Made by a program: the position numbers and the translations under genes. The notes beneath the pieces are model-generated. The model saw nothing but the letters and a program-made list of their open reading frames with translations. It was not told the DNA's origin and searched no databases. A stretch of DNA of 40,786 nucleotides from a virus: positions 1 through 40,786 of IMG/VR virus record IMGVR_UViG_3300031965_000073; one strand, given 5' to 3'. Shown here one piece after another: positions 1 to 40,443 of this stretch; the first letter of the stretch is position 1; each line of letters begins with the position of its first letter.

Positions 1-127
1 ATCGTGGTGAGGCAAGGAAGTACAACATCAACTGCTCGATTTGAGTTTGTGACATTAAGTTCATTGCGAGTACCCGCTTCAAGTGCATGGTTTCTTTCGG
101 CGACCATGTTGGTGTTACTTTTCTCAC
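1..127. repeat. Left copy of a 127-bp terminal direct repeat identical to 40660-40786. It indicates a circularly closed or terminally redundant genome of 40659 unique bp.
   Basis: Read directly. Both copies run ATCGTGGTGAGGCAAGGAAGTACAACATC...GGTGTTACTTTTCTCAC. Confidence 0.9.
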
Positions 128-514
128 GCGCACAGTTGTGTCATGAAAAAAGCGCACTAACGAATGATGCGTAGATTGCGCTTTTGTCGGCTTTGGTATT
201 CTGACTTCTTTTACTGGAAGCAATGTGTAGAGATTGCTTGTCCCATCACGGCGATCAACACGTACAAGCTCACACTGCTCTAAGAGCTTCATGGCTCGTA
301 CCACCGTACTTTTTGAAGACCTCACTCGCTCCGCGATGGTAATCATCGACGGCCACGACCTCTGATCTTCATTCCCTGCAAACGCGGCGAGAGCCGAATA
401 CACCCGAAAGGCCGAATCCGGTAAGTCGGAAAACAGGACAGCTTTATGTGTCCATAACCAGTCTCCGCTTCGCAGATCCCGCACTTCTATTTTTGGATGT
501 ATGTTGTTACTCAT
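1..514 (-). CDS. N-terminal part of a winged-helix DNA-binding protein, possibly a replication initiator. The ORF runs off the left edge and continues in frame at 40786..40418 across the circular junction (251 aa in total).
   Basis: ATG at 514-512, translated by hand: MSNNIHPKIEVRDLRSGDWLWTHKAVLFSDLPDSAFRVYSALAAFAGNEDQRSWPSMITIAERVRSSKSTVVRAMKLLEQCELVRVDRRDGTSNLYTLLP... 129 codons precede the GTG AGA AAA that opens the track ORF 40418..40786. The HTH-like segment is ITIAERVRSSKSTVVRAMKLL. The ORF is absent from the track because it has no stop inside the window. Confidence 0.75.
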   Translation of the reverse strand, partial: MSNNIHPKIEVRDLRSGDWLWTHKAVLFSDLPDSAFRVYSALAAFAGNEDQRSWPSMITIAERVRSSKSTVVRAMKLLEQCELVRVDRRDGTSNLYTLLPVKEVRIPKPTKAQSTHHSLVRFFHDTTVRVRKVTPTWSPKETMHLKRVLAMNLMSQTQIEQLMLYFLASPR

Positions 515-588
515 GACCTCGTCAACTTCAAGTATGGCACCGGCGACAGGAAACGCCAAGAGTTGATTAGTGGGTAACTGGTGCATAA

Positions 589-1254
589 CTAAAACAATTT
601 ACCTTCGTGCATGCTGAACTCGTACCACTGTGCGGGATTGTACTCATTCGCAAGGTCACGGAAGTCCTGTTTTGGCTCACGACCTTTCTTCACTGTCTTT
701 GTTACAAAATCAACGTGCGACTGTAGTGCCTTCGTGATGGTGATAGTTTCATCAAAGCGCTCCTCGATGCGACCACGCCATACCTTCACTTTCGCCGGAA
801 CCGGATTACCGGCGAGGGCTTCCCACCCTCGCTTAGTAATCACCCATACTCCGGCCACTCGCTTGTCTCCTTTCGTGCGTAGCTGTGCCACGAGTCCGAG
901 CTTCGATGCCTGTGTCGTGCGGCATTTTACCGCGTGTGACACCGGCAATTCCGGCACTCTGACCTGATTTGCTACCGTGAACTCTAGCCCTTTGTGTCGT
1001 CTGTGCTGAACCTCCTGTGCCATCTTCAAGAGCAGAATTGCATCCCATGCATCAAAGTTGAATGTGTACTCAACCATGCTCGCGTCACAGTTCGGACATA
1101 CATCTTTGCGGGCCAATTCCGGCATTACCATCTTCATTTGTGCTTTCAGAAAATCAGGGTTATCAAGTACCTGTGGATTCTTCTTCACAATCGAGATCAT
1201 CAGATTGACCATCGCACCGAGTTTGCCACTGTGGTACTCAGTGCGCTCGCTCAT
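589..1254 (-). CDS. Hypothetical protein (221 aa) with a single CPNC motif
   Basis: Long minus-strand ORF with an ATG start, tightly packed with its neighbours (4-nt overlap with the upstream gene). No family recognised. Confidence 0.7.
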   Translation of the reverse strand: MSERTEYHSGKLGAMVNLMISIVKKNPQVLDNPDFLKAQMKMVMPELARKDVCPNCDASMVEYTFNFDAWDAILLLKMAQEVQHRRHKGLEFTVANQVRVPELPVSHAVKCRTTQASKLGLVAQLRTKGDKRVAGVWVITKRGWEALAGNPVPAKVKVWRGRIEERFDETITITKALQSHVDFVTKTVKKGREPKQDFRDLANEYNPAQWYEFSMHEGKLF

Positions 1255-1535
1255 ACGATGAAGTAAAGAGCAGCACCAATAATTGCAGTAGCGAGAATCA
1301 TGCCGAACAATTCACCGAATGTGAAACCGTTGCGGCTCGTCACCAACTTGCGAACCACTGTGAGTGTGATTACACCGGCATCAATTTCCTTACTCGTCAC
1401 CGGTATCTTCTTTCCGACTTTGCCACCGCCGCCCGTAGGTAGTGCATTCTTTTTTCGCAAACGGTACTTCGCCATGCGCTCACGATTCAACTTCTTTCGC
1501 GCTTCCTCCTTCGCCTTTGATAGTTTCTTTTCCAT
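1251..1535 (-). CDS. Hypothetical tail-anchored membrane protein (basic N-terminus, C-terminal TM helix)
   Basis: 94-aa ORF. It has a Lys/Arg-rich N-terminus, a GGGG linker and the C-terminal hydrophobic segment FGMILATAIIGAALYFIV. ATG start. Confidence 0.6.
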   Translation of the reverse strand: MEKKLSKAKEEARKKLNRERMAKYRLRKKNALPTGGGGKVGKKIPVTSKEIDAGVITLTVVRKLVTSRNGFTFGELFGMILATAIIGAALYFIV

Positions 1536-1536
1536 A

Positions 1537-1770
1537 TTAGTTTGTTGTTTTTTCTACACTCTTAATCGTCGGGTTCGCGTTCGCCGGTTTCTTTATATCG
1601 CGGCGCATTGCGCGAGCGATGAAGTCACCCTCTCCGAACGTCTGATAAATCCACCACGCCATTTTTGCTCTGTCACAATCTTCGGTGAGGTCAAGATGCT
1701 TGCATTCCTTCAAGAGTGCATCATCAATCGCTGCCACCACTTCCAGTGCCTTGTTGTTTGTTGATGTCAT
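1537..1770 (-). CDS. Hypothetical protein (77 aa)
   Basis: ORF with an ATG start. Its stop lies 1 nt from the next start and it is co-oriented with the operon. Confidence 0.55.
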   Translation of the reverse strand: MTSTNNKALEVVAAIDDALLKECKHLDLTEDCDRAKMAWWIYQTFGEGDFIARAMRRDIKKPANANPTIKSVEKTTN

Positions 1771-1771
1771 G

Positions 1772-1903
1772 TTAGCGCTTCACTGTTTCCTTCACCGTGG
1801 TTTTCGGGTATCTCACGGCGAACTTTTTAGTAACGAATCGACCTGTCTTTGCACTACGGAACACCTTTTGCGTTGCCACCTTTTTTTGCTTTTTTGTTTT
1901 CAT
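1772..1903 (-). CDS. Small basic protein (43 aa)
   Basis: Translated by hand because it is below the track cutoff: MKTKKQKKVATQKVFRSAKTGRFVTKKFAVRYPKTTVKETVKR. It exactly fills the gap between two genes. The KTGRFV...HP.TTVKE pattern recalls a widespread small-protein family; this is from memory and unverified. Confidence 0.45.
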   Translation of the reverse strand: MKTKKQKKVATQKVFRSAKTGRFVTKKFAVRYPKTTVKETVKR

Positions 1904-1913
1904 GATTATTTTG

Positions 1914-2117
1914 TTACTGCATCATTTCTAATGCACCTAATATCTTCTCGTCGTGGTCATGCATGAACTGCAAGTAATCGACTGCATTCACGCTGCATGT
2001 CACCGCCTCTACCTCCTGACCGTCTGTACCGATGTACGAACCCTTGTGGCAAAACTGCTCCTTAAACACCGCATCCCGTTCTGCCATGAGTTGTTTTATG
2101 TAGTCGTATCTGCCCAT
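1914..2117 (-). CDS. Hypothetical protein (67 aa)
   Basis: The track ORF 1914..2177 starts on GTG inside the upstream gene. The ATG at 2117 (MGRYDYIKQL...) lies 1 nt after the upstream TAG stop. Confidence 0.55.
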   Translation of the reverse strand: MGRYDYIKQLMAERDAVFKEQFCHKGSYIGTDGQEVEAVTCSVNAVDYLQFMHDHDEKILGALEMMQ

Positions 2118-2118
2118 A

Positions 2119-4263
2119 CTAAGCCATATAACCTTGTAATCTTTCAATGCCGTGGTCGCCCGCGAATAGCATGTCACCCTTGCCCGCTAGACGTTCGGCC
2201 CCTGCATCGTCGAGCACCACCTGTGAGTCAGTGATCTTCGCTGTCTTGAACACCACCTTTGTAGGGAAGTTCGCTTTGATAGTTCCCTTAATGACATCAA
2301 CTGATGGTCGCTGTGTCGCGATGATAACGTGTATGCCCGCGGCTCGTGCCTTCTGTGCGAGCAAGAGAATCGAGCGCTCAATTTCTGCTGAAATATCTGT
2401 CTCCTCAATTCTTGTTTCCTCCTCACCTTTGCGCGGGCCTTGTGCGAATACCTTGCCGGTGAGTATGGTCTTCTTCTCGATATGTCGTGCGGCAATTAGA
2501 TCGCCGAACTCATCAATGACCACAAACTTTGTCGGCATGTTCTTCATCTCTGCACTGCTTCGCTTCTTTGCTTTCGCCATCTGCTTGTACCGGTGATTCA
2601 TTTCATCGACCAATGCCCGCAACGATGTATGAATCGGCATGATGTCACACTGGTACTCGACCACATTCGCATCGTCCTGATGCTGTGAGAGTTCCACCAT
2701 TTTCGGGTCATATAAATGAATCTGCACCCCACTGATTCGAGAGAGTTGTGTAATCACACTCGAAAGGAATACCGACTTGCCGCTACCGGAAGCACCGGCG
2801 ACAAGCATGTGCGGTGCATTCCTGATGTCGAACCGTCGTGCATTCCCCATCACGTCCTCACCTATTGCAAGGTCAAAGCCGTTACCGGAAGGCAATGCAG
2901 GGAAGGTGCGCTCGAATCGTGGCACCTCGAATCCAATGAGCGAGCTATCGGGAATCGGTGCAAGCACCCGCACTCCTGAAACTCCAAGCACCTGAGAAAT
3001 ATCATCGGCAAAGTTTCGTACCTTGCTCATCTTGATACCGATGCTAGGTGCGAACCGGTATAGGTCTACCGTTGCCCCATGCACCAATGAATCGAACGAA
3101 AGCATCATGCCGTGTTCCATCATCTTCGTTTGTATTTTTTCTTCGTTTTTCATTTTTGAATAATCTATATTTTTAGCAGCTACAAATTGCTCCTCAACTG
3201 CCTTCATGAGTTTCCTCATGTTGCCCGCACTTTGTATCTCTCTTTTAAGTAACTCTGTGATGTTATCGACTTTGTGTTTCTTCATCAGTGCCGCGGTTTC
3301 CTCCGGCATATCGAGCCGGTGAATGTATGCGACGATAGCAACTTCATTGTCGAACATTGCATCGACGTTCGGTACGAATATCGCCTCACCATTGAGCGCT
3401 CGCGTGATGTCCTCATAGAATCGAAAGAAGAAGTCGAAAAACAAATCATTGTCTTTGAACACCATCTCGTACTCACGAACCTGTGGCGAGCCGTCACTAT
3501 TCTTTGTGTACTTCGCTTCCTGAAACGTCACGCTGTACGGCTCCTCACCATGCTTTGCATACGTCAGTAGGTAGTAAATCACCGCCTGCAGAATCTTTGC
3601 ACCATCAATTTTCTCCGGATTGCTGTATGCGTAGCACGTTTTATAGTCAACGATTTTCAGCTTCCCATCGACACGGTCAGTCCGGTCAATGTACCCTTTG
3701 AGTGCCACCGGTAGACGTAGCTCGCGCCCGCGCCACTCGACATCAATAATCTCTTTGATTTCATCCTCGACTGATACCAGAGTTTCTTTGTTGTATGGCA
3801 TCTGCTTCACATACGAGTTGTAGGTGAACGTGAATACCTCAAAGAGTTTTTGCTTGTTCGGTATCGTCTTCGAGTAATTGATGAACCCGTCATTGTGCTT
3901 TTCGATATAGTCCATGCCTGAGGTAAGGCCGTACTCGATTGCCTCTGCCTCGTTTGTTGGTATGAGGGTATCACTGCCACCGTAGTACACTTCCATCGCA
4001 TGATGAAAGGCATTTCCGAGAACCCCTGATACATTGCGGGCCGTATCGAACCGGTCACCATTCATGTACTCAATCTTGAATAGAATCGGATTCGTCGAGA
4101 ACCTTCGCATCGAACTCGCACTGTAGTGCGGAACCGGAAAGTCAGTTTTTATCGGCGTCGATGGCTGCCTCTCCTTCAACTGTGCTTTGATCGCCTTCGG
4201 CATTTGTAGCCCCATGCGTACTTTGGTCTTCCGCACCGACTTTGTCTTGTTTGGTTTTTTCAT
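2119..4263 (-). CDS. Fusion protein: N-terminal PD-(D/E)XK (RecB/Cas4-like) nuclease domain plus C-terminal FtsK/SpoIIIE-type DNA translocase ATPase. It has no TM segments and no gamma domain.
   Basis: Nuclease motifs: GNAFHHAME, VEDEIKE, GYIDRTDRVDGKLKIVDYKT, QAVIYY. FtsK motifs: LVAGASGSGKSV (Walker A), FVVIDEFGDL (Walker B), IIATQRPSVDVIKGTIKANFPTKVVFKT, GKGDMLF. The start is uncertain: ATGs at 4263, 4215 and 4203 all overlap the RecT 3' end. Confidence 0.8.
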   Translation of the reverse strand: MKKPNKTKSVRKTKVRMGLQMPKAIKAQLKERQPSTPIKTDFPVPHYSASSMRRFSTNPILFKIEYMNGDRFDTARNVSGVLGNAFHHAMEVYYGGSDTLIPTNEAEAIEYGLTSGMDYIEKHNDGFINYSKTIPNKQKLFEVFTFTYNSYVKQMPYNKETLVSVEDEIKEIIDVEWRGRELRLPVALKGYIDRTDRVDGKLKIVDYKTCYAYSNPEKIDGAKILQAVIYYLLTYAKHGEEPYSVTFQEAKYTKNSDGSPQVREYEMVFKDNDLFFDFFFRFYEDITRALNGEAIFVPNVDAMFDNEVAIVAYIHRLDMPEETAALMKKHKVDNITELLKREIQSAGNMRKLMKAVEEQFVAAKNIDYSKMKNEEKIQTKMMEHGMMLSFDSLVHGATVDLYRFAPSIGIKMSKVRNFADDISQVLGVSGVRVLAPIPDSSLIGFEVPRFERTFPALPSGNGFDLAIGEDVMGNARRFDIRNAPHMLVAGASGSGKSVFLSSVITQLSRISGVQIHLYDPKMVELSQHQDDANVVEYQCDIMPIHTSLRALVDEMNHRYKQMAKAKKRSSAEMKNMPTKFVVIDEFGDLIAARHIEKKTILTGKVFAQGPRKGEEETRIEETDISAEIERSILLLAQKARAAGIHVIIATQRPSVDVIKGTIKANFPTKVVFKTAKITDSQVVLDDAGAERLAGKGDMLFAGDHGIERLQGYMA

Positions 4264-5059
4264 CTTTCAAAAGATTACCCATGGCAATACCGCTCGACTC
4301 TTTCTGTGCGGCTTCCATACGGTCACTGATAATTGAATCTCGATTGTCCTCCGCGATTGCATTCACGATGGTTTCATTCTTCGGTACGAGCTTCGCCACT
4401 TGCTTCAATACGGTCTTCTTCCACATCCAAAGTTGCGGGTCATTGTTTTCATTCCATGGTGAAAAGTCGCCTCCGAAACTCTTGCTGAACTTCTTACCCA
4501 TTGCCAATATATCTTTAGCACTCATCACCTCACTCACCTCGCCACCGGAACCCAATCGCACAATCACATACGCACCGATTGCCTCACCTCTATCACTAAA
4601 GTGGTCAGGCCGGTGTGTGATTTTCTTATTCTCAACTTCAAAGAAGTCGTTTTTGCGAACCACATCAGCGACGATCTCGATTGCTCCGGCTCGATAAAAC
4701 AAAGTCACCAGACCTTGATAGCCTAGTTGGAACTGTGCTTCGAGCACTCCTTTATTCTTGTATGGCAGTACATACGCTTCACCACTCACACCCGACGGCA
4801 TGAATCCAAGCTGTGCCATGGTCATGAAACTATTTATGACCGACGGCGCTGTGCAGTTCAGCAGTTCAGGAAGTCGCTGCGTTGCCGCGACCACCGCACT
4901 GAGGAATGCCATTGCTTTCTTGTCGTCACCAAAATAGTTTTGTATCTGCCTCATGTAGTTCTTTGCAATGACATCTTTCAATATCAACTCGCTCCCGAAC
5001 TTCGTAGGAATAACCACCGGCTTTGACGCTGTGGGTTTGTTTTGCATGTCGTTACTCAT
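4142..5059 (-). CDS. recT: RecT-family single-strand annealing recombinase
   Basis: RecT-like core: APSVINSFMTMAQLGFMPSGVSGEAYVLPYKNKG...QFQLGYQGLVTLFYRAG...PWNENNDPQLWMWKKTVLKQVAKLVP. The C-terminal tail is acidic and looks disordered. Confidence 0.8.
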   Translation of the reverse strand: MSNDMQNKPTASKPVVIPTKFGSELILKDVIAKNYMRQIQNYFGDDKKAMAFLSAVVAATQRLPELLNCTAPSVINSFMTMAQLGFMPSGVSGEAYVLPYKNKGVLEAQFQLGYQGLVTLFYRAGAIEIVADVVRKNDFFEVENKKITHRPDHFSDRGEAIGAYVIVRLGSGGEVSEVMSAKDILAMGKKFSKSFGGDFSPWNENNDPQLWMWKKTVLKQVAKLVPKNETIVNAIAEDNRDSIISDRMEAAQKESSGIAMGNLLKDEKTKQDKVGAEDQSTHGATNAEGDQSTVEGEAAIDADKN

Positions 5060-5081
5060 GACGCTATTTTCTTATTCCGGC

Positions 5082-5336
5082 CTAGAGCTTCACTTTGCCG
5101 CTCTCGACACTCTTGATAAACTTCAACACGTTTTCACCTTTGAAGGTGTACCGCATCCCCATTCCGTGACCTCGTATGACAGTCCGTAAAATATCAGCAC
5201 CCATCTTGTCGGCTTTCACCGCACTCCGATACCTCCGAATGTCATTGCCACAAAAGGGAAACGCATCTGCATTCACCAAGTCCGTGAGTGTATACCACTC
5301 GTCCGGCTTGAGTTGCTGTTTTGATTTCGTACCCAT
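5082..5336 (-). CDS. Hypothetical protein (84 aa)
   Basis: The track ORF starts on TTG at 5366. The first ATG is at 5336 (MGTKSKQQLKPDEWYTL...). It is the first gene after the 5367-5504 intergenic region. Confidence 0.55.
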   Translation of the reverse strand: MGTKSKQQLKPDEWYTLTDLVNADAFPFCGNDIRRYRSAVKADKMGADILRTVIRGHGMGMRYTFKGENVLKFIKSVESGKVKL

Positions 5337-5504
5337 GACTTTTTTCTCTATTAGTAATACCTCCAATTATGCATGCTTCGCTATGTTACGACAAGCTGTG
5401 ACAAGTGGGTAACTCAAAAGAAAACGGCGTAGATTTTGTAACCCCCACCGTGTTCCTATTTTTTGCGCCCACCCATGACCGGCTTCCCGTTTTGCCGTAA
5501 ATCC

Positions 5505-6227
5505 TTAGAACTGTTTGACGTAGTACTTGTTTATCATCGCGAGGTGCGTTTCGATGTTCTCTGTCCAATCAGGACACTCACCACTGCCGCGCTCCTCATC
5601 GACACAGTAGATGCCATTCATTTCCGCAATGGAAAGGTTCACATACCGTGGCTTTTGCAATAGATATGCAATGTCTTCGATACCCTCGAATGCTGTCCGG
5701 TATGCTTTGAATGTACCATCGGGCCGCTTGATTCCTCCACAGTTGTTTTGTCGCCCCACACCGGTAGTGCAAAGCTGTGTCTCTTGCGCCGCAATCGCGA
5801 CGGCCTCTTGCCATCGCGGTAGCTTCACAATTTCATCTGAGAAAGAAACCAATGCAGGATTGTGTTCACCGAAGAACTCACGTAGAGCTTGCTCTTTCTT
5901 CGCATCAGGGAAGAACCCTTTTGCATCTAACTCCTCGAGCTTTTCTGTCGCCTCTTTGAAAGTGCGCTCCCAATAAATTGTTTCGGCTTCCTCTCGCGCC
6001 CGCTGTTTGAATGATTCCTCATTCATGATGGTTTCGATTTCTTCTGTGAGTGGGTCTAGGCGCTCTGGTGTCGTCGTAGCGTTGTTTTCGTAAGTCGTCA
6101 CACCGATCTCGCGAAGCTCCTCACGGTAGATATATCCTAGGCCCGCTGCGCCTACAAAGGCCGCGAGCATACACCACCAAAGTACTCGTTTCATCAGGTC
6201 AAAGAACTGTCCAATAATGCGTTTCAT
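5505..6227 (-). CDS. Membrane-anchored peptidoglycan hydrolase-like protein (glucosaminidase/FlgJ-type domain)
   Basis: N-terminal TM helix VLWWCMLAAFVGAAGLGYIY. The C-terminal segment AIAAQETQLCTTGVGRQNNCGGIKRPDGTFKAYRTAFEGIEDIAYLLQK resembles the glucosaminidase A.ESGWG...NN.FGIK...F..Y.S.E.SI.DY..LL pattern. Confidence 0.5.
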   Translation of the reverse strand: MKRIIGQFFDLMKRVLWWCMLAAFVGAAGLGYIYREELREIGVTTYENNATTTPERLDPLTEEIETIMNEESFKQRAREEAETIYWERTFKEATEKLEELDAKGFFPDAKKEQALREFFGEHNPALVSFSDEIVKLPRWQEAVAIAAQETQLCTTGVGRQNNCGGIKRPDGTFKAYRTAFEGIEDIAYLLQKPRYVNLSIAEMNGIYCVDEERGSGECPDWTENIETHLAMINKYYVKQF

Positions 6228-6245
6228 GCTTAATTGTTATGTTGT

Positions 6246-6446
6246 TTAATAGCTTTGCTTCTTCTCGTATTCACATTCGACACTGTGCAAGGTACAGAGT
6301 TGAAAGTCCCGTACCTGCAGTTCCAGTGCCGCATTTTGCTCCCGCAAGTCCATGAAGGCCACCCGAATCGGTATGACCACCATGGCTGTAATCGCGGCTG
6401 CGAGGATAATCGCTACCAAGATTGATAATGCTGTTGCTCTTTGCAT
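6246..6446 (-). CDS. Small membrane protein (66 aa)
   Basis: ATG start and one TM helix (ALSILVAIILAAAITAMVVIPI). Preferred over the overlapping ORF 6271..6543, which has an unconvincing composition. Confidence 0.45.
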   Translation of the reverse strand: MQRATALSILVAIILAAAITAMVVIPIRVAFMDLREQNAALELQVRDFQLCTLHSVECEYEKKQSY

Positions 6447-6587
6447 GTCTTAATTGCTTAGATTTGCCCCGTAGGGCCGCGATACCCCTTGTATCGCTAC
6501 TTCTTATAATAACTCGCTTTACGCTCGATTTTGACCGGCTCATGCCTCTGTCCTAGCATTCTGCGTGGTCGAGCGCCTAACTGAACC

Positions 6588-6815
6588 CTATTCTTGTTCC
6601 ACTTGACAGATACACTTTTCTGTACCGACACCATGCATCATGTGTCCTTCTCCATCATCGACATCGGTACTCACTTCCCCTGTTCCGAGACAGTAGGCGC
6701 ACACTTCCTCTGTGGCACATACCTTCTTGCATCGTAAGCATCTGCGCCCGATACCTCCACTGAGTTCCCAAGTTTCAGCCTCACAGCATTTTGAGATTAG
6801 TGTTGTTTCGCTCAT
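6588..6815 (-). CDS. Cys-rich zinc-finger protein (DnaJ-type CxxCxGxG motif)
   Basis: Motifs CLRCKKVC, CAYCLGTGEV and CICQ. The ATG start overlaps the next gene by 4 nt. Confidence 0.6.
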   Translation of the reverse strand: MSETTLISKCCEAETWELSGGIGRRCLRCKKVCATEEVCAYCLGTGEVSTDVDDGEGHMMHGVGTEKCICQVEQE

Positions 6816-7105
6816 ACCTTCGTGCTGTCTAATGCTGTTAAATACACGTCACCTTCGATGTAGGTGACACTCACCTCATTGTTTTGAACCTTCCAGTGAT
6901 ACGGCGCTCGATACTCTACATCGCGGAACCCTCGTGCATGCAACTCGTAGTAAAAGTCCATGCACTCATTGTCCCAACTCTCGAAGAAGTAAACCGCATT
7001 CGCTCCCATGAGTGGTGCGGCTGAATCCCCTTTGTGGTAGAACCTTCCTCCGAACTTCGTGGCTATCGCGGCTGCCTCCTCAACGTGTTTTCTAGTCGCT
7101 ATCAT
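6812..7105 (-). CDS. Hypothetical protein (97 aa)
   Basis: ATG start with operon-style overlaps at both ends. Confidence 0.6.
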   Translation of the reverse strand: MIATRKHVEEAAAIATKFGGRFYHKGDSAAPLMGANAVYFFESWDNECMDFYYELHARGFRDVEYRAPYHWKVQNNEVSVTYIEGDVYLTALDSTKV

Positions 7106-7466
7106 GTTTGTTTTTTAGATGAACGTGTAAGTTGAAGCAGTCGCGTGGGATATTTCCTACACCATCATCTGAGTAAAAGGTGCTGAACTCTGCATCTGCA
7201 AAGTCCATCGCTGCGTATACCCTGTCTCGTGCCTCCTTCGCCGCGAGATTCAATTCCTCGCGGCATCGCATGCAGTACGGCATTCCTTCGAGGCAATAGC
7301 AACCCTTTGGCCTTTGAATCTCAATGGTCGCACTCACCCAACCGGAAGCCGTACCTCTGCCCTTTTGTACTGATACATTTTTGCGCCCGTATCTTTCAGC
7401 GAGCGCCACCTTCACAATCTTCGTGATCTCATTTGCACTTACATACTCTTTATGTATTTGTGTCAT
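7092..7466 (-). CDS. Hypothetical protein (124 aa)
   Basis: ATG start with a protein-like composition. No family recognised. Confidence 0.6.
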   Translation of the reverse strand: MTQIHKEYVSANEITKIVKVALAERYGRKNVSVQKGRGTASGWVSATIEIQRPKGCYCLEGMPYCMRCREELNLAAKEARDRVYAAMDFADAEFSTFYSDDGVGNIPRDCFNLHVHLKNKHDSD

Positions 7467-7477
7467 GACGTTTGGTC

Positions 7478-7906
7478 TTACCGATACTTTTTAAGAATGT
7501 CCTCTATCGCACTGAACACCTCCGGCAACACTATTTCATTGATGCGTTTTGTTTCCGCTTCATTTTTGATAGTCAATGCAACTGGATTTGTGGTGCAGTG
7601 ACTTCCTCCCCTTCCGAGTACTTCTGCCGCCTCTCGCAATGAGTAAGCGGTCAGCACCAATTCCGTGAAAGTCCACACATCGTTCTCATCAGTGACGGTG
7701 AAACTTTCTCCGAAGTGTTTAAGAATCGCGTCGCGTAGGTGAATGTTCTCTGTGCGATTCAGGCCGTCTAAATGGTAGTGAGTATTTTTGTTTCCGAGAT
7801 ACCCGAATCCCCAATACCATCCGCAACTCCACTCCGGTGCGGAAAGGTAGATCACTTCATCATCTACCTTTCCCATCTTGAACTTTTCAGTGAATGTTGT
7901 TTTCAT
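7478..7906 (-). CDS. Hypothetical protein (142 aa)
   Basis: The track ORF begins on TTG at 7945. The first ATG is at 7906 (MKTTFTEKFKMGK...). It contains a Trp-rich motif, PEWSCGWYWGFGYLG. Confidence 0.6.
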   Translation of the reverse strand: MKTTFTEKFKMGKVDDEVIYLSAPEWSCGWYWGFGYLGNKNTHYHLDGLNRTENIHLRDAILKHFGESFTVTDENDVWTFTELVLTAYSLREAAEVLGRGGSHCTTNPVALTIKNEAETKRINEIVLPEVFSAIEDILKKYR

Positions 7907-8066
7907 TTTTTTCCAAGAAACTTTGTTTGTGTAATGCGACTCCAAGCGCGTCGATGATTTTCTGTGCGGCTCCCGTCACTTCGACTTCGACCATCTCACC
8001 ATCTTCCTCGAATGTGTATGCCGTGTAATCTTCACCCACATGAACCTTCTGAATGTTTTTTATCAT
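7887..8066 (-). CDS. Small hypothetical protein (59 aa)
   Basis: Translated by hand because it is below the track cutoff: MIKNIQKVHVGEDYTAYTFEEDGEMVEVEVTGAAQKIIDALGVALHKQSFLEKNENNIH. It starts 5 nt after the upstream stop and fills an otherwise empty gap. Confidence 0.45.
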   Translation of the reverse strand: MIKNIQKVHVGEDYTAYTFEEDGEMVEVEVTGAAQKIIDALGVALHKQSFLEKNENNIH

Positions 8067-8071
8067 GATGC

Positions 8072-8278
8072 TTATGCGATTACTCCTGACTCAAACTTCT
8101 TTGCGATTGCATTTGCAAGTCGCGCATTTGACTGTTCAGGATTTACTTTGATGTGCTTCGCTACATATCGTGCGAGTACTTCGAGCTTCACATTTACTGG
8201 ACGACACTTTTCAAGACGAACGTAATCAATGAAGTTGTATGCTACTGCGCGGTCTTCCTTATGGAGTTTTTTACACAT
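8072..8278 (-). CDS. Hypothetical protein (68 aa), first gene of the early block downstream of the lysis terminator
   Basis: ORF with an ATG start. It is preceded by 329 nt of non-coding sequence. Confidence 0.55.
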   Translation of the reverse strand: MCKKLHKEDRAVAYNFIDYVRLEKCRPVNVKLEVLARYVAKHIKVNPEQSNARLANAIAKKFESGVIA

Positions 8279-8439
8279 ATAGTTTTTATTATCTTTGTAA
8301 TGATTCCCGAACTCTCCGGCGTGTCGTTACCACGCCGGTGTTCAGGTATTTGATTGTCAATGTACTGCTTCCCTCCTCACTCTATTATCTCGTACCTAGC
8401 GTTTCTTAGCAATGCCTAACAGTGCATAACTTTTACACG

Positions 8440-8468
8440 AAAAAACCCCTATATTCAATAGAGGTTTT
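8440..8468 (-). terminator. Rho-independent terminator ending the late (structural plus lysis) transcript. It is potentially bidirectional.
   Basis: The minus strand reads CCTCTAT-TGAAT-ATAGGGG followed by TTTTTT. The plus strand also has TTTT after the stem. It lies about 140 nt downstream of the holin stop. Confidence 0.65.
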
Positions 8469-8607
8469 CCGGCTCCGGCCCATTAGAGGAAGCTCAGAGT
8501 TGGAGAATAGCGTCATGAGTAACGACACGAGCGACTATGCTTTGGTTTTCATGCTCTCACAGAAAACCATCTCTGAACTTCCTTAATGAGCCTGAACTGA
8601 TTTTTTA

Positions 8608-8853
8608 TTACCCTGCGCGTAGAGCTTTCACACCCGAGTACAACCCTGATGATGAAAGTCCGACTACGATGCCACCGATGATGATGGCCGGTAGTCCTGT
8701 CACAACAAGTGCAGACAATCCGATACCCATAATAATCGCGGCAATCGGTGCAAACTGTGACGGCACACCGACTCCCTTCACGATCTCAACAAGTCCTGTC
8801 ACTACAGGAATGAGTGCGAGTGTAAGTGGTGTGATGAATGTAAGTGCTTCCAT
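8608..8853 (-). CDS. Holin
   Basis: The 81-aa protein is almost entirely hydrophobic (2-3 TM helices) with a short charged C-terminus. It lies immediately downstream of the endolysin. Confidence 0.7.
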   Translation of the reverse strand: MEALTFITPLTLALIPVVTGLVEIVKGVGVPSQFAPIAAIIMGIGLSALVVTGLPAIIIGGIVVGLSSSGLYSGVKALRAG

Positions 8854-8864
8854 GATATTTTTTA

Positions 8865-10025
8865 TTAAGCGAACTTTTTATTAAGTACCTCCCTCGTCAG
8901 TTGATACACGTATCGACCTCCGTTTTGATCTAACTGCCAATCCGGTAGCAAACGGTTATCTTTCTGCAGTCGCAATACCGCTGCTGCAGTTTTCGGCCCG
9001 TAGATACCGTACTCGTCAATCTTCACATCGAGGTAGCCAAGAATTGAAAGTGCTACGTGCAACTTTTTCACTTCATCATTCTGCATGCCGTACTCAATGT
9101 TTGTCTCATAGCGATGTCGGAAGTTTTTTGCTTCCGGTAAGTCCTTCACCGTCTTTATGATGGCTTCCGGTATCTCAGAAACTACCCATGCCTCAGTGAA
9201 GTAGTAAGGCGCGAGCGTTCCAAAAACAAAATTGTAGTAACCGGCCTCCTGTTCATTGTTGTCGAAGCACCAATCTCTACCCCATGAGTTCGGGCCTGCC
9301 AAGAGCATGCCGTTATCGAGTCCATCATACTCATTCATTGCCATGATGTGACCGCCGGTAATCGGTGACGGTACTCTCAGTGGCAGTAAGTCCTTTGCCT
9401 TCTTTGTGGGTTTATTATCTTTCGTGCGGAACATGTTCGTACCCGTTGCGAATCGCGCAATGACCACACGGCCCGCGGTGATCTCTTTCGCGATTGTGAT
9501 AGGGTCGAGCTTCAACTTGTAGTAGCCCGCAATTTTGTGGTTTGCCGCATCTGCAAGTACTTCTGCCGGAATCACACCGCCATAGGTACTCTTGAAGTCA
9601 GCAATGAACTCTGCATAGGTTCCTGTCGTCTTGAGTGGGAACTTCGCGCGGATTTCCTTCGTCGGCATACCGTATTTGTTTGCCGCCTTGAGCATCGTGA
9701 GGGCAGAACTACCCTCGAAGTGCCGCCCATAGAGCAAATCATCGAAAAGGGTCTTGCCGATAAGGTAGCCCCAATACTCATCGAGGCGCACCCCATCTTT
9801 GAAGTATTCCTCCACTGCCATACGAACGCCGCATTTAGTGCAGATTCCGAGCTTCCTCTGGTCACAGAGTTCATTGACCGTAGGATAGTTGAGCTTCACT
9901 TCCCCGCGCTCTGGAACCTCGCCCGCGGTGTCCGGCATCATTTCCGATGTCACTGTTCGATAATCATCAGCCGATGGCTCCCCGCCGAATGAGATTTCTA
10001 ACTCGTCCTGTTCATTGTTTTCCAT
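8865..10025 (-). CDS. Endolysin: papain-like (C1-type) cysteine peptidase domain plus a C-terminal peptidoglycan-binding (PG_binding_1-like) domain
   Basis: GGHIMAMNEYDG and NSWGRDWC...GYY resemble the His and Asn-Ser-Trp-Gly blocks of C1 peptidases. The C-terminal KLHVALSILGYLDVKIDEYGIYGPKTAAAVLRLQKDNRL is a typical PG-binding repeat. It is adjacent to the holin. Confidence 0.7.
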   Translation of the reverse strand: MENNEQDELEISFGGEPSADDYRTVTSEMMPDTAGEVPERGEVKLNYPTVNELCDQRKLGICTKCGVRMAVEEYFKDGVRLDEYWGYLIGKTLFDDLLYGRHFEGSSALTMLKAANKYGMPTKEIRAKFPLKTTGTYAEFIADFKSTYGGVIPAEVLADAANHKIAGYYKLKLDPITIAKEITAGRVVIARFATGTNMFRTKDNKPTKKAKDLLPLRVPSPITGGHIMAMNEYDGLDNGMLLAGPNSWGRDWCFDNNEQEAGYYNFVFGTLAPYYFTEAWVVSEIPEAIIKTVKDLPEAKNFRHRYETNIEYGMQNDEVKKLHVALSILGYLDVKIDEYGIYGPKTAAAVLRLQKDNRLLPDWQLDQNGGRYVYQLTREVLNKKFA

Positions 10026-10244
10026 ATATATTTGTCGTTACTCTAATACCCACACAGTATACCAATTTTTCAATTCTTTTTATGTATCTAAGTTTAGTTA
10101 ATGGGTATAGTTACTGAGTATAGTTATGGACTCAAAATAGCACCGGTGTGCGGTGTCAAAAAGACACCGGTGTGGTTTCTTTATGAAACCAGTTTCAAAT
10201 TGAAACCACTTTACCCACTCCACTGGTGTTGATGCAAACCGGCA

Positions 10245-10628
10245 ATGAGGCATACTTGTGGTATGAATGAATCTGAAAGATTTTGTGAAGAATGCACCAC
10301 CTTGTTTTTTAGCAACCACCCACTGAAAAGGTTTTGTTCAGAACGGTGTAAGGTTCGTGCAGAAGACAGAAGGCGCTCACATGCCTCAAAAAAAGAGGCT
10401 TACGAACTACTAGGAAATAAATGCGCTCATTGTGGATTTGATGATGCTCGCGCTCTGCAAATAGATCATGTTGATGGCGGCGGCAAGAAAGAACTAACGA
10501 ACATCGGCAACCGTCGTGTGTATTATAAGCGCATCATTGCTTTGATAAAGAGTGGTTCAAAAAAGAAATACCAACTGCTCTGTGCAAACTGCAACTGGAT
10601 TAAGCGCCACGTAGATAATGAAAAGTAG
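10245..10628 (+). CDS. HNH endonuclease (probably a free-standing homing-type nuclease). This is the only plus-strand gene.
   Basis: CAHCGFDDARALQIDHVDGGG...LLCANCNWIKRH is the HNH/Zn-finger signature, and there are N-terminal CxxC pairs. It is inserted between the tail-fibre and lysis modules on the opposite strand. Confidence 0.8.
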   Translation: MRHTCGMNESERFCEECTTLFFSNHPLKRFCSERCKVRAEDRRRSHASKKEAYELLGNKCAHCGFDDARALQIDHVDGGGKKELTNIGNRRVYYKRIIALIKSGSKKKYQLLCANCNWIKRHVDNEK

Positions 10629-11039
10629 TTAGGTTTGCTCCTTCAAGACAGCAATCAAGTTGCGCATATCGTCCGAAAGAGCCATAACGATTTGATTCGT
10701 TTGCTTTGAAAGTGCCATACTCTCTGCAGACTGTGTATAGAACTTTTCGGCGCGATCGTCACGACCTTGCAACACTTTCATAAGAGTATCGTTTTCGGTC
10801 TTCACGGTACGGATTTCAGTGCGTAGTGTGATGATTTCTTTTTCCTGCGCATTGACCTTTTTTATGAGCTCGCCGACTTCGGTCTGCAAAAGCAAAATGA
10901 TGCGGTCTTCGGTGCCGTCCACGACTTTGCGACGACTTCTGAATTGAGTATCAAATACACCAAAAATCGCGACGATGCCGATTACGACAGCCGTCCCGAT
11001 TCCAACCCATACACCGAACTGATTGAAAAATGCTTCCAT
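10629..11039 (-). CDS. Membrane-anchored coiled-coil protein (136 aa), function unknown
   Basis: N-terminal TM helix VWVGIGTAVVIGIVAIFGVF followed by heptad-like sequence. ATG start. Confidence 0.6.
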   Translation of the reverse strand: MEAFFNQFGVWVGIGTAVVIGIVAIFGVFDTQFRSRRKVVDGTEDRIILLLQTEVGELIKKVNAQEKEIITLRTEIRTVKTENDTLMKVLQGRDDRAEKFYTQSAESMALSKQTNQIVMALSDDMRNLIAVLKEQT

Positions 11040-11042
11040 ATT

Positions 11043-11960: not shown

Positions 11961-11961
11961 A

Positions 11962-12537: not shown

Positions 12538-12549
12538 ACCTTGATTTTA

Positions 12550-14037: not shown

Positions 14038-14038
14038 A

Positions 14039-15679: not shown

Positions 15680-15682
15680 ATA

Positions 15683-16251: not shown

Positions 16252-16272
16252 GACTTATCGCTTTTAAATGTT

Positions 16273-17277: not shown

Positions 17278-17298
17278 GGTAATAAATGTTAGCTAATA

Positions 17299-17466: not shown

Positions 17467-17475
17467 AGATATATT

Positions 17476-17979: not shown

Positions 17980-17980
17980 A

Positions 17981-18442: not shown

Positions 18443-18447
18443 ACATA

Positions 18448-19359: not shown

Positions 19360-19363
19360 ACGA

Positions 19364-22273: not shown

Positions 22274-22276
22274 TTT

Positions 22277-22306
22277 AAAAAAAGAGTGGGCACATTTTAT
22301 GCCCAC
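22277..22306 (-). terminator. Intrinsic terminator/attenuator hairpin immediately upstream of the 969-aa gene start
   Basis: The minus strand reads GTGGGCA-TAAAATG-TGCCCAC-TC-TTTTTTT-AAA-ATG. The loop contains the TAA stop of the upstream gene. Confidence 0.55.
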
Positions 22307-39618: not shown

Positions 39619-39795
39619 CTATTCAACGTCGATTGATGCTAGTAATCCCACATGAGTGATGCCCTTGTCATTCACCGGTACATCCTTCGTGTGGTTTTGC
39701 GCTTTCTTTAGTGCCTCCTCAAAGGTGAGGGCCACTACCGTGAAGCTATGCTCATTTGCGAGCGTGACACGGTATAGATTCTTTGATGGTGTCAT
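39619..39795 (-). CDS. Small hypothetical protein (58 aa)
   Basis: Translated by hand: MTPSKNLYRVTLANEHSFTVVALTFEEALKKAQNHTKDVPVNDKGITHVGLLASIDVE. It has an ATGA overlap with the upstream gene and ends 2 nt before the TM2 gene start. Confidence 0.45.
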   Translation of the reverse strand: MTPSKNLYRVTLANEHSFTVVALTFEEALKKAQNHTKDVPVNDKGITHVGLLASIDVE

Positions 39796-40199
39796 AATGT
39801 AATTGTTACTTCTACTCCCACAAACTCACCGCCATCTTTGAAGTCGAATGAGCCTGCGAGATACTTGTCCTGTTTGAATAATGCATCTGCGATTGAACCG
39901 AATATATTTTCAGGGTCGCCGTGGTTTCCGCTTCCCCAATGTATCAATAAGTCCATACGCATCGGTCTTTCTTTCTTCGTGCTGAATGGTTTACCGGTCA
40001 GTCCGATGTTCCTTAAAATCATCGGCCATGCTTCTGTGTTTCGTGCGGTGTCGATAAGTGTTGCTATCACGTACTCTTTCCAACTCACGTAGCGTTTCGC
40101 CTCCGGTGTCCACTGCTGACCTTTTGTTTTTTTCAGCTTCGGCAAAGGATTTCCGTCTATGGAACTGTGATTGCCGCGAATCAGGAAATGCAAGCTCAT
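39792..40199 (-). CDS. rusA: RusA-like Holliday junction resolvase. The ORF is open up to the ATG at 40331; the ATG at 40199 gives a typical 135-aa RusA.
   Basis: MSLHFLIRGN...PLPKLKKTKGQQWTPEAKRYVSWKEYV...RMDLLIHW...GDPENIFGSIADALFKQDKYL follows the RusA pattern (basic loop, then D.DN..K...DAL). Confidence 0.5.
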   Translation of the reverse strand: MSLHFLIRGNHSSIDGNPLPKLKKTKGQQWTPEAKRYVSWKEYVIATLIDTARNTEAWPMILRNIGLTGKPFSTKKERPMRMDLLIHWGSGNHGDPENIFGSIADALFKQDKYLAGSFDFKDGGEFVGVEVTITL

Positions 40200-40443
40200 G
40201 TGTTCGCCGTTTGAATGCTTCAAAAGCCCCATCGGTATCGGGTATCCAGTTTTCGGGATTTCTTTTGAGTTTTCGGAAACAGTTTTCATTGAGACAATCG
40301 TTGATTCTACAATGCGTTTTAGTCGGTTCATGGTAGCCGTCGTTGTTTATGCGTATGAGTATACGGCCCTGCTCACCACATGCGAAGCAATACTCAGTGA
40401 GCATCAGTTCGCCGTCCTCAGTTCGTCGCGCCGGTTTCCTCAT
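39991..40443 (-). CDS. Cys-rich ORF whose 3' half overlaps the RusA-like gene out of frame. Only the N-terminal ~80 codons look protein-like.
   Basis: ATG at 40443: MRKPARRTEDGELMLTEYCFACGEQGRILIRINNDGYHEPTKTHCRINDCLNENCFRKLKR... Beyond about 40200 the sequence becomes Arg-rich and looks like out-of-frame translation. Confidence 0.4.
   Translation of the reverse strand: MRKPARRTEDGELMLTEYCFACGEQGRILIRINNDGYHEPTKTHCRINDCLNENCFRKLKRNPENWIPDTDGAFEAFKRRTHELAFPDSRQSQFHRRKSFAEAEKNKRSAVDTGGETLRELERVRDSNTYRHRTKHRSMADDFKEHRTDR

Follow-up and report, generated by a model that had tools for sequence, protein, structure and literature searches.

Phage exonuclease/annealing-protein systems form the basis of recombineering, and all of those characterized to our knowledge use ATP-independent exonucleases. 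In these SynExo pairs (lambda Exo-Beta, RecE-RecT, YqaJ-RecT, and SPP1 G34.1P-G35P), the exonuclease gene adjoins a co-oriented gene for a single-strand annealing protein (SSAP) within an early operon, and the pairing is partner-specific. The characterized partner exonucleases known to us all owe their processivity to the toroidal oligomers that they form.

The combination of a nuclease with a HerA/FtsK-type pump is an established theme that is represented by at least HerA-NurA, DUF4297-HerA, and DndH. In the HerA-NurA system of archaea and Deinococcus, the N-terminal barrel of HerA forms the exit of the pump and binds NurA, such that HerA feeds DNA into NurA and end resection leaves a recombinogenic 3' tail (PMC9960219). 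DUF4297-HerA has nuclease layers stacked on a HerA hexamer, with mutual activation of the nuclease and the ATPase (PMC11291478). DndH is a covalent REase-FtsK-alpha-FtsK fusion whose FtsK portion was captured from cellular FtsK (PMC10853773).

Here we describe a gene from IMG/VR virus record IMGVR_UViG_3300031965_000073, a 40.8-kb phage whose entire 40,786 nt were analyzed and are referred to below as the window. An earlier note on this DNA had described a PD-(D/E)XK nuclease fused to an FtsK motor beside recT, and had proposed that the protein could be an end-resection machine. Our analysis suggests that the fusion is probably an ATP-driven end-resection enzyme of a kind so far undescribed for phage recombination.

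RESULTS

The fusion gene overlaps recT

The fusion gene spans positions 2119..4263 on the minus strand and was defined by the ORF list, three Pfam domains, more than 120 full-length homologues, and a family alignment (A1). Counted from the first ATG, this longest ORF encodes 714 amino acids (aa) and ends with a stop codon at 2119-2121. The start codon is ambiguous because homologues in alignment A1 back M1, M17, or M21, which correspond to probable starts at 4263, 4215, and 4203. In contrast, the database gene call for this protein (P0001) has 648 aa and begins at M67, a start that would cut into the nuclease domain.

The recT gene (4142..5059, minus strand) encodes a 305-aa SSAP that was identified by matches to PF03837 (2e-34), phrog_148 (3.9e-59), and NF007351 (3.7e-42). 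The 3' end of recT extends into the fusion gene by 122 nt if the latter begins at the first ATG, by 74 nt if it begins at M17, or by 62 nt if it begins at M21. A small ORF recognized from the sequence (1914..2116, minus strand; 67 aa from the ATG at 2116) begins 2 nt past the fusion stop codon in the same operon, and a PHROG search with it gave no match. The other recombination gene of the phage encodes a RusA-like Holliday-junction resolvase (39792..40331, minus strand; phrog_6537, 9e-6), and several related loci likewise have a RusA homologue downstream of the fusion. Promoter and terminator scans of positions 1-6500 gave no signal above that of shuffled sequence.

A RecB/Cas4-family nuclease forms the N-terminal half

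The protein begins with a lysine-rich tail that is followed by a RecB/Cas4-family PD-(D/E)XK nuclease domain (aa 47-293; 3385..4125, minus strand), which was assigned by Pfam (PDDEXK_1, PF12705, E 2.8e-15) and an AF2 model. Conservation was evaluated by using 57 diverged representatives (at most 50% identity, down to ~27%) plus the window protein, for a total of 58 rows. Motifs I-IV of RecB/Cas4-family exonucleases (E ... D ... (D/E)xK ... QxxxY) are present, and the catalytic residues are H87, E166, D193, D206-x-K208, and Q226xxxY230. Each of these named residues occurs in all 58 sequences except for Y230, which is kept in 35 of the 58.

The AF2 model of the nuclease domain has a pLDDT of ~90 across its core. 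When this model was used for a Foldseek search, matches were obtained to Cas4 (SSO0001; 4ic1, 8.6e-6), MGME1 (5zyt, 5e-5), AddAB/RecB at ~1e-4 (4ceh, 1.2e-4; 5mbv, 1.4e-4), and RecE (3h4r, 1.2e-3). The modeled fold resembles those of end-processing RecB-family exonucleases (RecB, AddAB, Cas4, MGME1, and RecE). This similarity emerged only by structure-based search, as PDB sequence searches with the domain, conducted with either the single sequence or a profile, yielded nothing significant (best profile match, MGME1 at E 0.83).

No cysteine in the nuclease is invariant or nearly so in alignments A1 and A2, and therefore the domain is not an Fe-S Cas4 with its four-cysteine cluster. Two stand-alone homologues of the nuclease, P0158 and P0187, are carried on contigs of 1-2 kb that are too short to provide gene context, and there is no FtsK gene downstream of P0158 on its short contig.

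A complete FtsK motor follows a conserved linker

Downstream of the nuclease, the FtsK alpha domain (aa 369-448; 2920..3159, minus strand) matches PF17854 (E 2.4e-14) and aligns with the alpha domain of P. aeruginosa FtsK. The FtsK beta domain, which is a RecA-like ATPase (aa 465-714; 2122..2871, minus strand), matches PF01580 (FtsK_SpoIIIE, aa 465-655, E 2.6e-24). This domain carries Walker A (GASGSGKS, 2773-2796, minus strand) and Walker B (VVIDEFGDL, 2497-2523, minus strand) motifs, an arginine finger (R640), and a sensor residue (Q651), with a variable insert of ~35 aa directly after Walker B. K496, E585, R640, and Q651 are found in 57 of the 58 sequences, and the remaining row has a gap. 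The Walker B residue D584 is D in 53 sequences and E in four, with a gap in one.

The fusion matches P. aeruginosa FtsK at 6.9e-49 by phmmer, with 31-33% identity across the alpha and beta domains. Foldseek likewise matched the motor to structures of FtsK bound to dsDNA (2iut and 6t8b, ~1e-21, target TM 0.64-0.68). The arginine finger and DNA-contact pore-loop residues of P. aeruginosa FtsK have been named previously (PMC7321959). In our alignment, the finger (R620) is conserved, as are six of the seven DNA-contact residues (R632, S634, V635, G640, K643, and K657), and the sole change is the replacement of R661 by Q. A packaging role for the FtsK portion is ruled out because the phage encodes its own small and large terminase subunits and a portal.

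No transmembrane segment was found in the protein by hydropathy, as the highest 19-residue Kyte-Doolittle mean, 1.39, falls within a core strand of the ATPase. The protein also has no Pfam match to the gamma domain (PF09397) and ends (...RLQGYMA) where FtsK beta ends, whereas a bacterial FtsK scanned in the same manner gave FtsK_gamma at 1.9e-27.

A helical linker recognized by its conservation (aa 297-368; 3160..3375, minus strand) joins the nuclease to FtsK alpha. Its mean top-residue frequency of 0.78 matches that of the catalytic domains, and its pLDDT in the AF2 model is below 50. Because the full-length model has a pTM of only 0.47, the arrangement of the domains is unreliable and inter-domain geometry was not used.

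These findings uphold the structural description given in the earlier note. Three Pfam domains reside in one 714-aa ORF, confirming a complete FtsK alpha/beta motor fused covalently to a nuclease, and the RecB-family assignment of the N-terminal half is supported by the domain search together with the essentially invariant motifs. The motifs quoted in that description are all present and are essentially invariant among the 57 homologues and the window protein. Likewise, a membrane anchor is absent by the hydropathy scan and a gamma/KOPS domain by Pfam, and the overlap with the recT 3' end is real (62-122 nt, depending on the start codon).

The fusion is linked to SSAP genes

Approximately 60 distinct fusion loci were examined, and all but one carry a gene for a RecT-family SSAP upstream on the same strand. 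The SSAP gene is directly adjacent in ~56 loci and within ~1.3 kb in the rest, and overlap with the fusion gene is usual (~30-90 nt). The upstream SSAPs belong to at least four RecT-family subgroups; the SSAP partner has been swapped between loci while its linkage to the fusion has been retained. At the exceptional locus, L011, the upstream gene encodes an uncharacterized phrog_3657 protein. When this protein was compared with RecT, hhalign found no homology except for a common C-terminal tail motif.

Another locus (L099), which lacks the fusion, encodes a RecT that is 61% identical to the window RecT, and the next gene there is for a stand-alone YqaJ exonuclease (PF09588, 1.8e-17). Judging from gene order in this single example, YqaJ takes the same position as the fusion beside a close RecT relative. 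Furthermore, in temperate prophages the fusion adjoins a CI/Cro-like switch, which is the classic place of a recombination module. These genomic comparisons lend strong support to both the architecture and a functional link to RecT.

The tail motif of the window RecT (I-A-M-G-N-L-L-K, aa 258-265; 4265..4288, minus strand) is encoded immediately ahead of the first fusion-gene ATG and was recognized by amino-acid conservation with synonymous codon changes. Within one IMG/VR sample, the motif occurs in nine of 11 fusion-linked RecTs versus none of 69 RecTs without the fusion downstream, an association that is partly confounded by phylogeny. It is common to three SSAP types that precede the fusion, including the divergent L022 type and the non-homologous L011 type. 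The motif is a candidate peptide for docking RecT to the fusion.

DISCUSSION

A proposed mechanism for motor-driven end resection

We predict that the fusion is a motor-driven exonuclease that partners with RecT to form a two-component exonuclease and annealing-protein module, and we assign a probability of roughly 0.55 to this reading. The FtsK alpha and beta domains would form a hexameric ring on dsDNA at or near an end, and ATP hydrolysis by this ring would pump the duplex from the beta face to the alpha face. In cellular FtsK, DNA is pumped from the beta to the alpha ring (PMC7321959), and this direction would place the N-terminal nuclease at the DNA exit. The RecB-family nucleases would hang from this alpha face via the conserved linker and, with their action coupled to ATP hydrolysis, would degrade the strand fed to them, most likely in the 5'->3' direction. 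RecT would coat the remaining 3' single strand, may dock through its short C-terminal tail motif (L-x-M-G-N-L-L-K), and would anneal the coated strand to a homologous partner, after which RusA would resolve the junctions.

The earlier proposal of an end-resection machine that feeds RecT is favored by the RecT linkage, the conserved catalytic sites, the YqaJ swap, and the predicted exit-face nuclease, from which we infer the activity itself. Some considerations count against end resection. FtsK is a duplex translocase rather than a helicase, and the substrates of RecB-family nuclease domains are single-stranded tails. No strand-separating wedge or pin was identified in the fusion, and the conserved linker is the only candidate for such a feature. 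Six nucleases per ring could also destroy both strands and leave RecT with nothing to bind. Moreover, the partner exonucleases of RecT or Red-beta that are known to us (lambda Exo, RecE, and YqaJ) need no ATP, which counts against a requirement for a motor.

Alternative roles for the fusion

The foremost alternative, which we regard as unlikely, is that the fusion serves in host takeover or the killing of competitors. The motor would reel in host or rival DNA that the nuclease shreds for nucleotides or shutdown, and the fusion would lie beside recT only because both belong to one early operon. A fast dsDNA pump that bears six nucleases would degrade DNA efficiently, and the PHROGs class of phage FtsK-like proteins is “moron, auxiliary metabolic gene and host takeover.” Many phages (Mycobacterium cluster J and Bacillus phages) also carry stand-alone FtsK-like genes without RecT, and so phage FtsK motors have other roles as well. 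However, host takeover is difficult to reconcile with an SSAP gene that remains linked in ~60 loci despite swaps of SSAP family, with the replacement of the fusion by YqaJ beside a close RecT, and with a tail motif that correlates with the presence of the fusion. The location beside a CI/Cro-like switch in temperate prophages likewise argues for recombination.

It is less probable still that the fusion acts only after annealing, with the FtsK ring branch-migrating RecT joints and the MGME1/Cas4-like nuclease trimming flaps in the absence of resection. RuvB is an established precedent for a ring-shaped dsDNA pump that drives branch migration, and MGME1, which acts on flaps and ssDNA ends, is among the closest structural neighbors of the nuclease. 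Such a role would remove the problem of how FtsK unwinds DNA, and RusA would be available for resolution. Yet the fusion sits exactly in the slot of YqaJ, which is a resection exonuclease, and resection would have to fall to the host, as the module showed no further exonuclease candidate.

We consider it improbable that the fusion is a phage-borne system for defense or superinfection exclusion of the “HerA/FtsK capture” kind, which would intercept and cut incoming or replicating foreign DNA. REase-FtsK-alpha-FtsK fusions are indeed found in DndH (PMC10853773) and HerA-nuclease complexes function in defense (PMC11291478), and PADLOC matches the fusion to SspH (4e-30) and mad8 (2e-24). These PADLOC matches, however, are confined to the FtsK half (aa 402-710), and the other DndH domains and partner genes are absent. 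The nuclease domain has the QxxxY motif of the exonuclease-type RecB family and is not a type II REase, and the fusion is always linked to an SSAP gene rather than to defense islands.

Integrity and distribution of the fusion family

The idea that a frameshift or misassembly joined two genes can be dismissed, since we found no support for it beyond the related point of the late database gene call (648 aa), whereas the ORF is uninterrupted and its architecture is the same in more than 120 full-length homologues (54-75% identity), in the 57 representatives (to ~27%), and in over 1,000 clusters of a second branch, with a highly conserved linker joining the halves. This conservation indicates that the fusion is a genuine single protein and not an assembly artifact.

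In total, the family comprises over 1,000 clusters at 90% identity in two branches, and the uncultured phages and prophages that conserve the fusion number well over a thousand. Its members, all uncultured, are labeled in databases only as “FtsK” or “RecB family exonuclease.” The fusion seems common in prophages on contigs of ~0.8-1 Mb and in Patescibacteria-labeled bins. It appears widespread among phages and prophages whose hosts are bacteria with small genomes (probably Patescibacteria/CPR) or other uncultured bacteria. Patescibacteria are organisms with reduced repair repertoires.

A tblastn search for the fusion in 50,697 GenBank phage records gave 356 matches, which cover the FtsK half only and none of which reaches 80% query coverage. 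A megablast search with window positions 1-20000 gave no match. Contigs named “Bacteriophage sp.” were considered as carriers of a split version, but the best one inspected (MT835804) proved to be a bacterial FtsK with a gamma domain beside BacA, not a phage gene.

Comparison with known systems

RecBCD and AddAB, which the earlier note had offered as functional analogues, also place a RecB-family nuclease behind a motor that uses ATP to advance from a DNA end. However, their motors are SF1 helicases, which move along single strands and unwind DNA. Both complexes are controlled by Chi, and the protein that they load is RecA instead of an SSAP. The fusion has no Pfam match to SF1/UvrD, and the AAA_19 P-loop appears only weakly (E 0.009), below its cut-off. 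HerA-NurA is the closer analogue, as it too has a hexameric dsDNA pump of the HerA/FtsK superfamily that feeds a nuclease on its N-terminal exit face, as proposed for the fusion. Unlike the fusion, HerA-NurA consists of two separate proteins (6:2), with a HAS barrel on HerA in place of FtsK alpha and an RNase-H-like fold in NurA in place of PD-(D/E)XK. HerA-NurA is also cellular and works with Mre11-Rad50 and RadA/RecA, with no SSAP linkage. Searches of the fusion for a HerA HAS barrel or helix bundle and for a NurA-type nuclease found neither, and HerA models match only its P-loop weakly. Thus, the fusion is an analogue of HerA-NurA and not a homologue beyond the common ATPase superfamily.

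Similarities to other nuclease-pump systems are also partial. Like DndH, DptH, and SspH, the fusion carries a PD-(D/E)XK-fold nuclease upstream of FtsK alpha and the ATPase. However, DndH functions in defense together with DndF and DndG. It has ~1,700 aa, compared to ~700 aa for the fusion, and it carries a type II REase as well as six further domains. The DndH/SspH domain set (SWI2/SNF2-C, TRD, inactive methylase, and REase) and DndF/DndG are missing from the fusion locus, where the neighbors are RecT and small phage ORFs. DUF4297-HerA differs in that it consists of separate proteins, uses HerA instead of FtsK, and serves abortive-infection host defense without an SSAP. Relative to cellular FtsK/SpoIIIE, the fusion conserves Walker A and B, the arginine finger, and most DNA-contact loops, but it lacks the membrane domain, the long linker, and the gamma domain (KOPS/XerD) and has in addition the post-Walker B insert and the nuclease. 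The earlier statement that no characterized example was known does not extend to the general nuclease-pump theme. For a RecT-linked phage fusion, text searches of an open-access subset found no paper, although such searches provide weak evidence.

In gene arrangement, the fusion matches the SynExo pairs, but their exonucleases are not RecB/Cas4-family nucleases covalently joined to an ATP-driven FtsK ring. FtsK is one of the fastest known dsDNA motors, and a RecT partner that carries its own motor would represent a new mechanistic class of end-resection enzyme. If so, the fusion could be ported as a compact, self-contained recombineering module. The conserved linker, whose AF2 confidence is low, and the RecT tail motif provide specific new leads. 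The fusion would also show that the HerA-NurA design, with a nuclease fed by a ring pump, evolved once more, in this case from FtsK. We tentatively propose, at slightly less than even odds, that this ~700-aa polypeptide of a captured FtsK pump and a RecB-type exonuclease, recruited to RecT through a docking peptide, is a third independently evolved DNA-end processor after RecBCD/AddAB and HerA-NurA, and the first ATP-driven enzyme among phage exonuclease/SSAP systems.

Architecture and conservation of the nuclease-FtsK fusion

The open reading frame at 2119-4263 (minus strand) is uninterrupted for 714 aa and encodes three Pfam domains: PDDEXK_1 (aa 47-293, 2.8e-15), FtsK_alpha (aa 369-448, 2.4e-14), and FtsK_SpoIIIE (aa 465-655, 2.6e-24). 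An earlier note had described this product as a RecB-family nuclease joined to an FtsK motor that lacks a membrane anchor and a gamma domain and whose gene start overlaps the 3' end of recT (4142-5059, minus strand; PF03837, 2e-34; phrog_148, 3.9e-59), and all of the elements that it described are present. The protein has no hydrophobic segment able to span a membrane, and its C-terminus, ...RLQGYMA, coincides with that of the FtsK beta domain; the same scan of a bacterial FtsK did yield FtsK_gamma. The exact start is ambiguous: recT, whose stop codon occupies 4142-4144, is overlapped by 122, 74, or 62 nt if the fusion begins at the candidate ATG at 4263, 4215, or 4203, respectively. Many homologues begin with MPKV(L/I)K, which aligns with M21 of the fusion, and others carry a lysine-rich extension resembling the first 20 residues of the window protein. 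The database gene call (P0001, 648 aa) starts at M67 and is probably too short, because this start would truncate the nuclease domain.

Searched against 5.8 billion proteins, the fusion had 569 matches. The best 120 of these share 54-75% identity with the query across 87-100% of its length, and their contigs are mostly 30-48 kb. Nearly all of the 120 carry the same three Pfam domains, which rules out the frameshift or assembly error that the earlier note had raised as a possible source of the joined reading frame. When the nuclease domain alone was used in an exhaustive HMMER search, only 191 clusters (50% identity) were recovered among 1.84 billion proteins. Most of these are 600-720 aa long, and Pfam confirmed the fusion architecture even where the nuclease domains are only 27-31% identical. 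Two homologues from this search are longer: P0244 (967 aa) carries an intein with an HNH endonuclease placed within the FtsK ATPase domain, and P0123 (984 aa) has a large insert in the same domain. A second branch of more compact relatives (~600-665 aa, 28-31% identical) forms over 1,000 clusters when grouped at 90% identity, and some of these have hundreds of members.

Conservation was assessed by aligning 57 fusion-length representatives with the window protein (n=58). The nuclease residues H87, E166, D193, D206, K208, and Q226 are invariant, whereas the motor residues K496 (Walker A), E585 (Walker B), R640, and Q651 are each found in 57 of the 58 sequences, and Walker B position 584 carries D in 53 sequences and E in another 4. 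Because both catalytic sites are near-invariant, this alignment indicates that both enzymatic activities are under purifying selection across the whole family.

By sequence, the nuclease half gave no significant match to the PDB. An AlphaFold model built on 16 homologues (core pLDDT ~90) matched Cas4 SSO0001 (8.6e-6), MGME1 (5e-5), the nuclease domains of AddA, AddB, and RecB (~1e-4), and RecE (1.2e-3), all of which are RecB-family enzymes that act on DNA ends. No cysteine is conserved, and thus the enzyme does not have the Fe-S cluster that Cas4 and AddB carry. The linker of ~70 residues that leads to the FtsK alpha domain (3160-3375, minus strand; fusion aa 297-368) is as conserved as the catalytic domains (mean top-residue frequency 0.78) despite an AlphaFold pLDDT below 50. 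In all likelihood this segment is functional, with a structure set by oligomerisation or by a partner; candidate roles are those of an oligomerisation collar, a partner-binding element, and a DNA wedge.

The motor half shares 31-33% identity with the alpha-beta motor of Pseudomonas aeruginosa FtsK (phmmer 6.9e-49), and Foldseek matched it to 2iut, 6t8b, and 6t8o at ~1e-21. The arginine finger (R620 in P. aeruginosa) is kept. Among seven DNA-backbone contacts taken from the structure of translocating FtsK (PMC7321959), six are retained (R632, S634, V635, G640, K643, and K657, P. aeruginosa numbering), and the sole change is R661 to Q. Directly after Walker B, homologues carry an insert of 0 to ~80 aa. 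The ~35-aa version in the window (about 2390-2495, minus strand; fusion aa 590-625) is predicted to form a beta-hairpin, which has no counterpart in P. aeruginosa FtsK.

Linkage to annealing proteins

Related loci were drawn from GTDB genomes, IMG/VR, and assemblies. In ~60 distinct loci with upstream sequence, a same-strand gene for an annealing protein precedes the fusion gene, and the two overlap by ~30-90 nt in most cases. For three loci (L003, L051, and L055), automatic selection of the nearest upstream ORF missed the RecT gene, which tblastn placed directly beside the fusion in L051 and, in L003 and L055, ~0.65-1.2 kb upstream of it. These annealing proteins are not all orthologues. Most resemble the window RecT, but six loci encode a divergent, Bet-like member of the RecT family (phrog_2449, phrog_252), four encode another type of single-strand annealing protein (SSAP; phrog_252; Pfam RecT 6.5e-17), and one encodes a phrog_561 RecT-like protein. 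The exception is L011, where RecT is replaced by a 274-aa phrog_3657 protein (5157-5981 of that locus, plus strand) for which no homology to RecT could be detected and which may represent an unrecognised family of annealing proteins. Linkage that outlasts a swap of partner is typical of functionally coupled modules.

The related locus L099 lacks the fusion. Here, a RecT 61% identical to that of the window is followed by a small zinc-ribbon ORF and then by a stand-alone YqaJ exonuclease (PF09588, 1.8e-17). Therefore, the fusion fills the slot of a canonical recombination exonuclease. A gene for a TIR-domain protein (PF13676, 7e-13) lies just downstream of this RecT-YqaJ module (L099 4397-5143, plus strand).

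The annealing proteins that precede main-branch (window-type) fusions also share a C-terminal tail motif, L-x-M-G-N-L-L-K, which in the window RecT spans aa 258-265 (4265-4288, minus strand), just before the first ATG of the fusion. The motif is kept at the amino acid level while its codons differ synonymously, and it occurs in window-type RecTs, in the divergent type represented by L022, and in the L011 protein, where it is the only part shared with RecT. The L099 RecT lacks the motif and splits from the window RecT exactly at this point. Among 80 RecT homologues sampled from IMG/VR, 9 of the 11 followed by a fusion carry the motif or a near variant of it, as against 0 of 69 without a fusion, an association partly confounded by relatedness. 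The distribution of the tail motif suggests that it is a candidate docking peptide for the partner. Lambda Exo and RecE are each known to contact their SSAP specifically (Beta and RecT, respectively).

Genome context and hosts

The window (~40.8 kb, from a source contig of 40,800 bp) is essentially one complete phage genome, with nearly all genes on the minus strand. It encodes small (32665-33294) and large (31137-32762) terminase subunits, a portal (28650-31088), a head protease (27065-28405), a major head protein (25690-26622), two tape-measure-like proteins (19364-22306 and 14039-15679), a tail fibre (11043-11960), and an endolysin-like protein (8865-10025). Because this phage has its own terminase and portal, a role for the FtsK part as packaging ATPase is ruled out.

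The recT and fusion genes lie within the early region. Among the early genes scanned (589-8800 and 33300-40786, minus strand), most lack a Pfam or PHROG match, and none was recognised as a replicative polymerase, helicase, primase, or initiator. A probable DNA base-modification module (36068-38361, minus strand) consists of a TET/JBP-family 2OG-Fe dioxygenase gene (36792-37622; PF12851, 49.6 bits versus a cut-off of 34.9) with an FkbM-family methyltransferase-like gene (36068-36805) on one side and a ParB-like gene (37594-38361) on the other. PHROGs names the dioxygenase family "queuine tRNA-ribosyltransferase." This module aside, the recognisable DNA-metabolism genes are only those for RecT, the nuclease-FtsK fusion, and a RusA-like resolvase (39792-40331).

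Between the small terminase gene and early genes lies a full-length tmRNA gene (33913-34259, minus strand; RF00023, 75.2 bits, E 1.4e-27, model positions 1-374 of 374), for which ARAGORN gives the tag peptide AKTSIPSPYAAFLQEPQYA*. A tRNA gene is found at 33483-33558 (minus strand; RF00005, 42.4 bits). ARAGORN assigns it no identity and a four-base anticodon, "caca"; the gene may encode a tRNA of the frameshift-suppressor type, or the predicted fold may simply be wrong.

Relatives of the fusion (L004-L013 among them) occur in metagenome bins labelled Paceibacterota, Saccharibacteria, Collierbacteria, Moraniibacteriota, and Patescibacteria, plus a few proteobacterial and other bins, although bins can hold mis-assigned phage contigs. 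Two second-branch members, L186 and L188, are prophages in contigs of 0.82 Mb (819 kb; GCA_964440835.1) and 1.0 Mb, beside housekeeping genes. These records suggest, short of proof, small-genome (CPR) hosts. Cpn10 and Cpn60 are also encoded in the prophage region of L188. The record MT835804.1 (L016, "UNVERIFIED: Bacteriophage sp.") matches the FtsK half through an 897-aa bacterial FtsK with a gamma domain, next to BacA and a cell-wall hydrolase, and is probably bacterial DNA or a prophage flank.

Proposed function and alternatives

We favor, with a probability of roughly 0.55, a motorised exonuclease that partners RecT. The earlier note had proposed end resection that feeds RecT. This interpretation is partly supported: the link of the fusion to recombination is strong, whereas the mechanism is one that we infer. 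The strict SSAP linkage, the YqaJ replacement, and the tail motif are left unexplained if the fusion instead shreds host or competitor DNA, and we consider this role unlikely even though its PHROG category fits and stand-alone phage FtsK genes exist without RecT.

For a motorised exonuclease, the geometry is as follows: FtsK drives DNA from its beta to its alpha face (PMC7321959), and the nuclease lies N-terminal to the alpha domain, so that the nuclease domains of a hexameric ring would cover the DNA exit. Because this geometry matches that of HerA-NurA, we propose by analogy that the ring would load at a DNA end and pump duplex into its own nuclease domains, leaving a 3' single strand for RecT, with RusA resolving the resulting junctions. 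This proposal has weak points: FtsK does not separate the strands of a duplex and no wedge was recognised in the protein, and six nucleases might destroy both strands. The unwinding problem would be sidestepped if the fusion acted after annealing, in branch migration and flap trimming, a role that also agrees with the MGME1-like fold. However, resection would then fall to the host, and the YqaJ replacement is at odds with this reading, which we regard as slightly less probable still than DNA shredding. A defence role is the least credible, as the PADLOC matches to SspH and mad8 are confined to the FtsK half, and DndH-type domains and partner genes are absent (PMC10853773).

Comparison with known systems

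The combination of a nuclease with a HerA/FtsK pump is an established theme, as in HerA-NurA (PMC9960219) and DUF4297-HerA (PMC11291478). In HerA, the exit is formed by the N-terminal HAS barrel, to which NurA binds, and dsDNA that HerA drives into this nuclease is left with a 3' tail (PMC9960219); the nuclease thus lies at the DNA exit of the motor, as it would in the fusion. DndH and other "HerA/FtsK capture" systems likewise unite nuclease and pump, covalently, as REase-FtsK-alpha-FtsK (PMC10853773). According to the same study, only some DndH proteins carry the FtsK alpha domain outside cellular FtsK.

The phage fusion family is a further capture of the cellular motor, apparently one not reported before. 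Text searches of the open-access literature subset found no mention of a RecT-linked nuclease-FtsK fusion, tblastn against GenBank phage records found none in cultured phages, and databases know the family only as "RecB family exonuclease," "DNA segregation ATPase FtsK/SpoIIIE," or "DNA translocase FtsK [Caudoviricetes sp.]." We therefore class this module as a phage exonuclease/annealing-protein pair whose putative exonuclease carries a motor.
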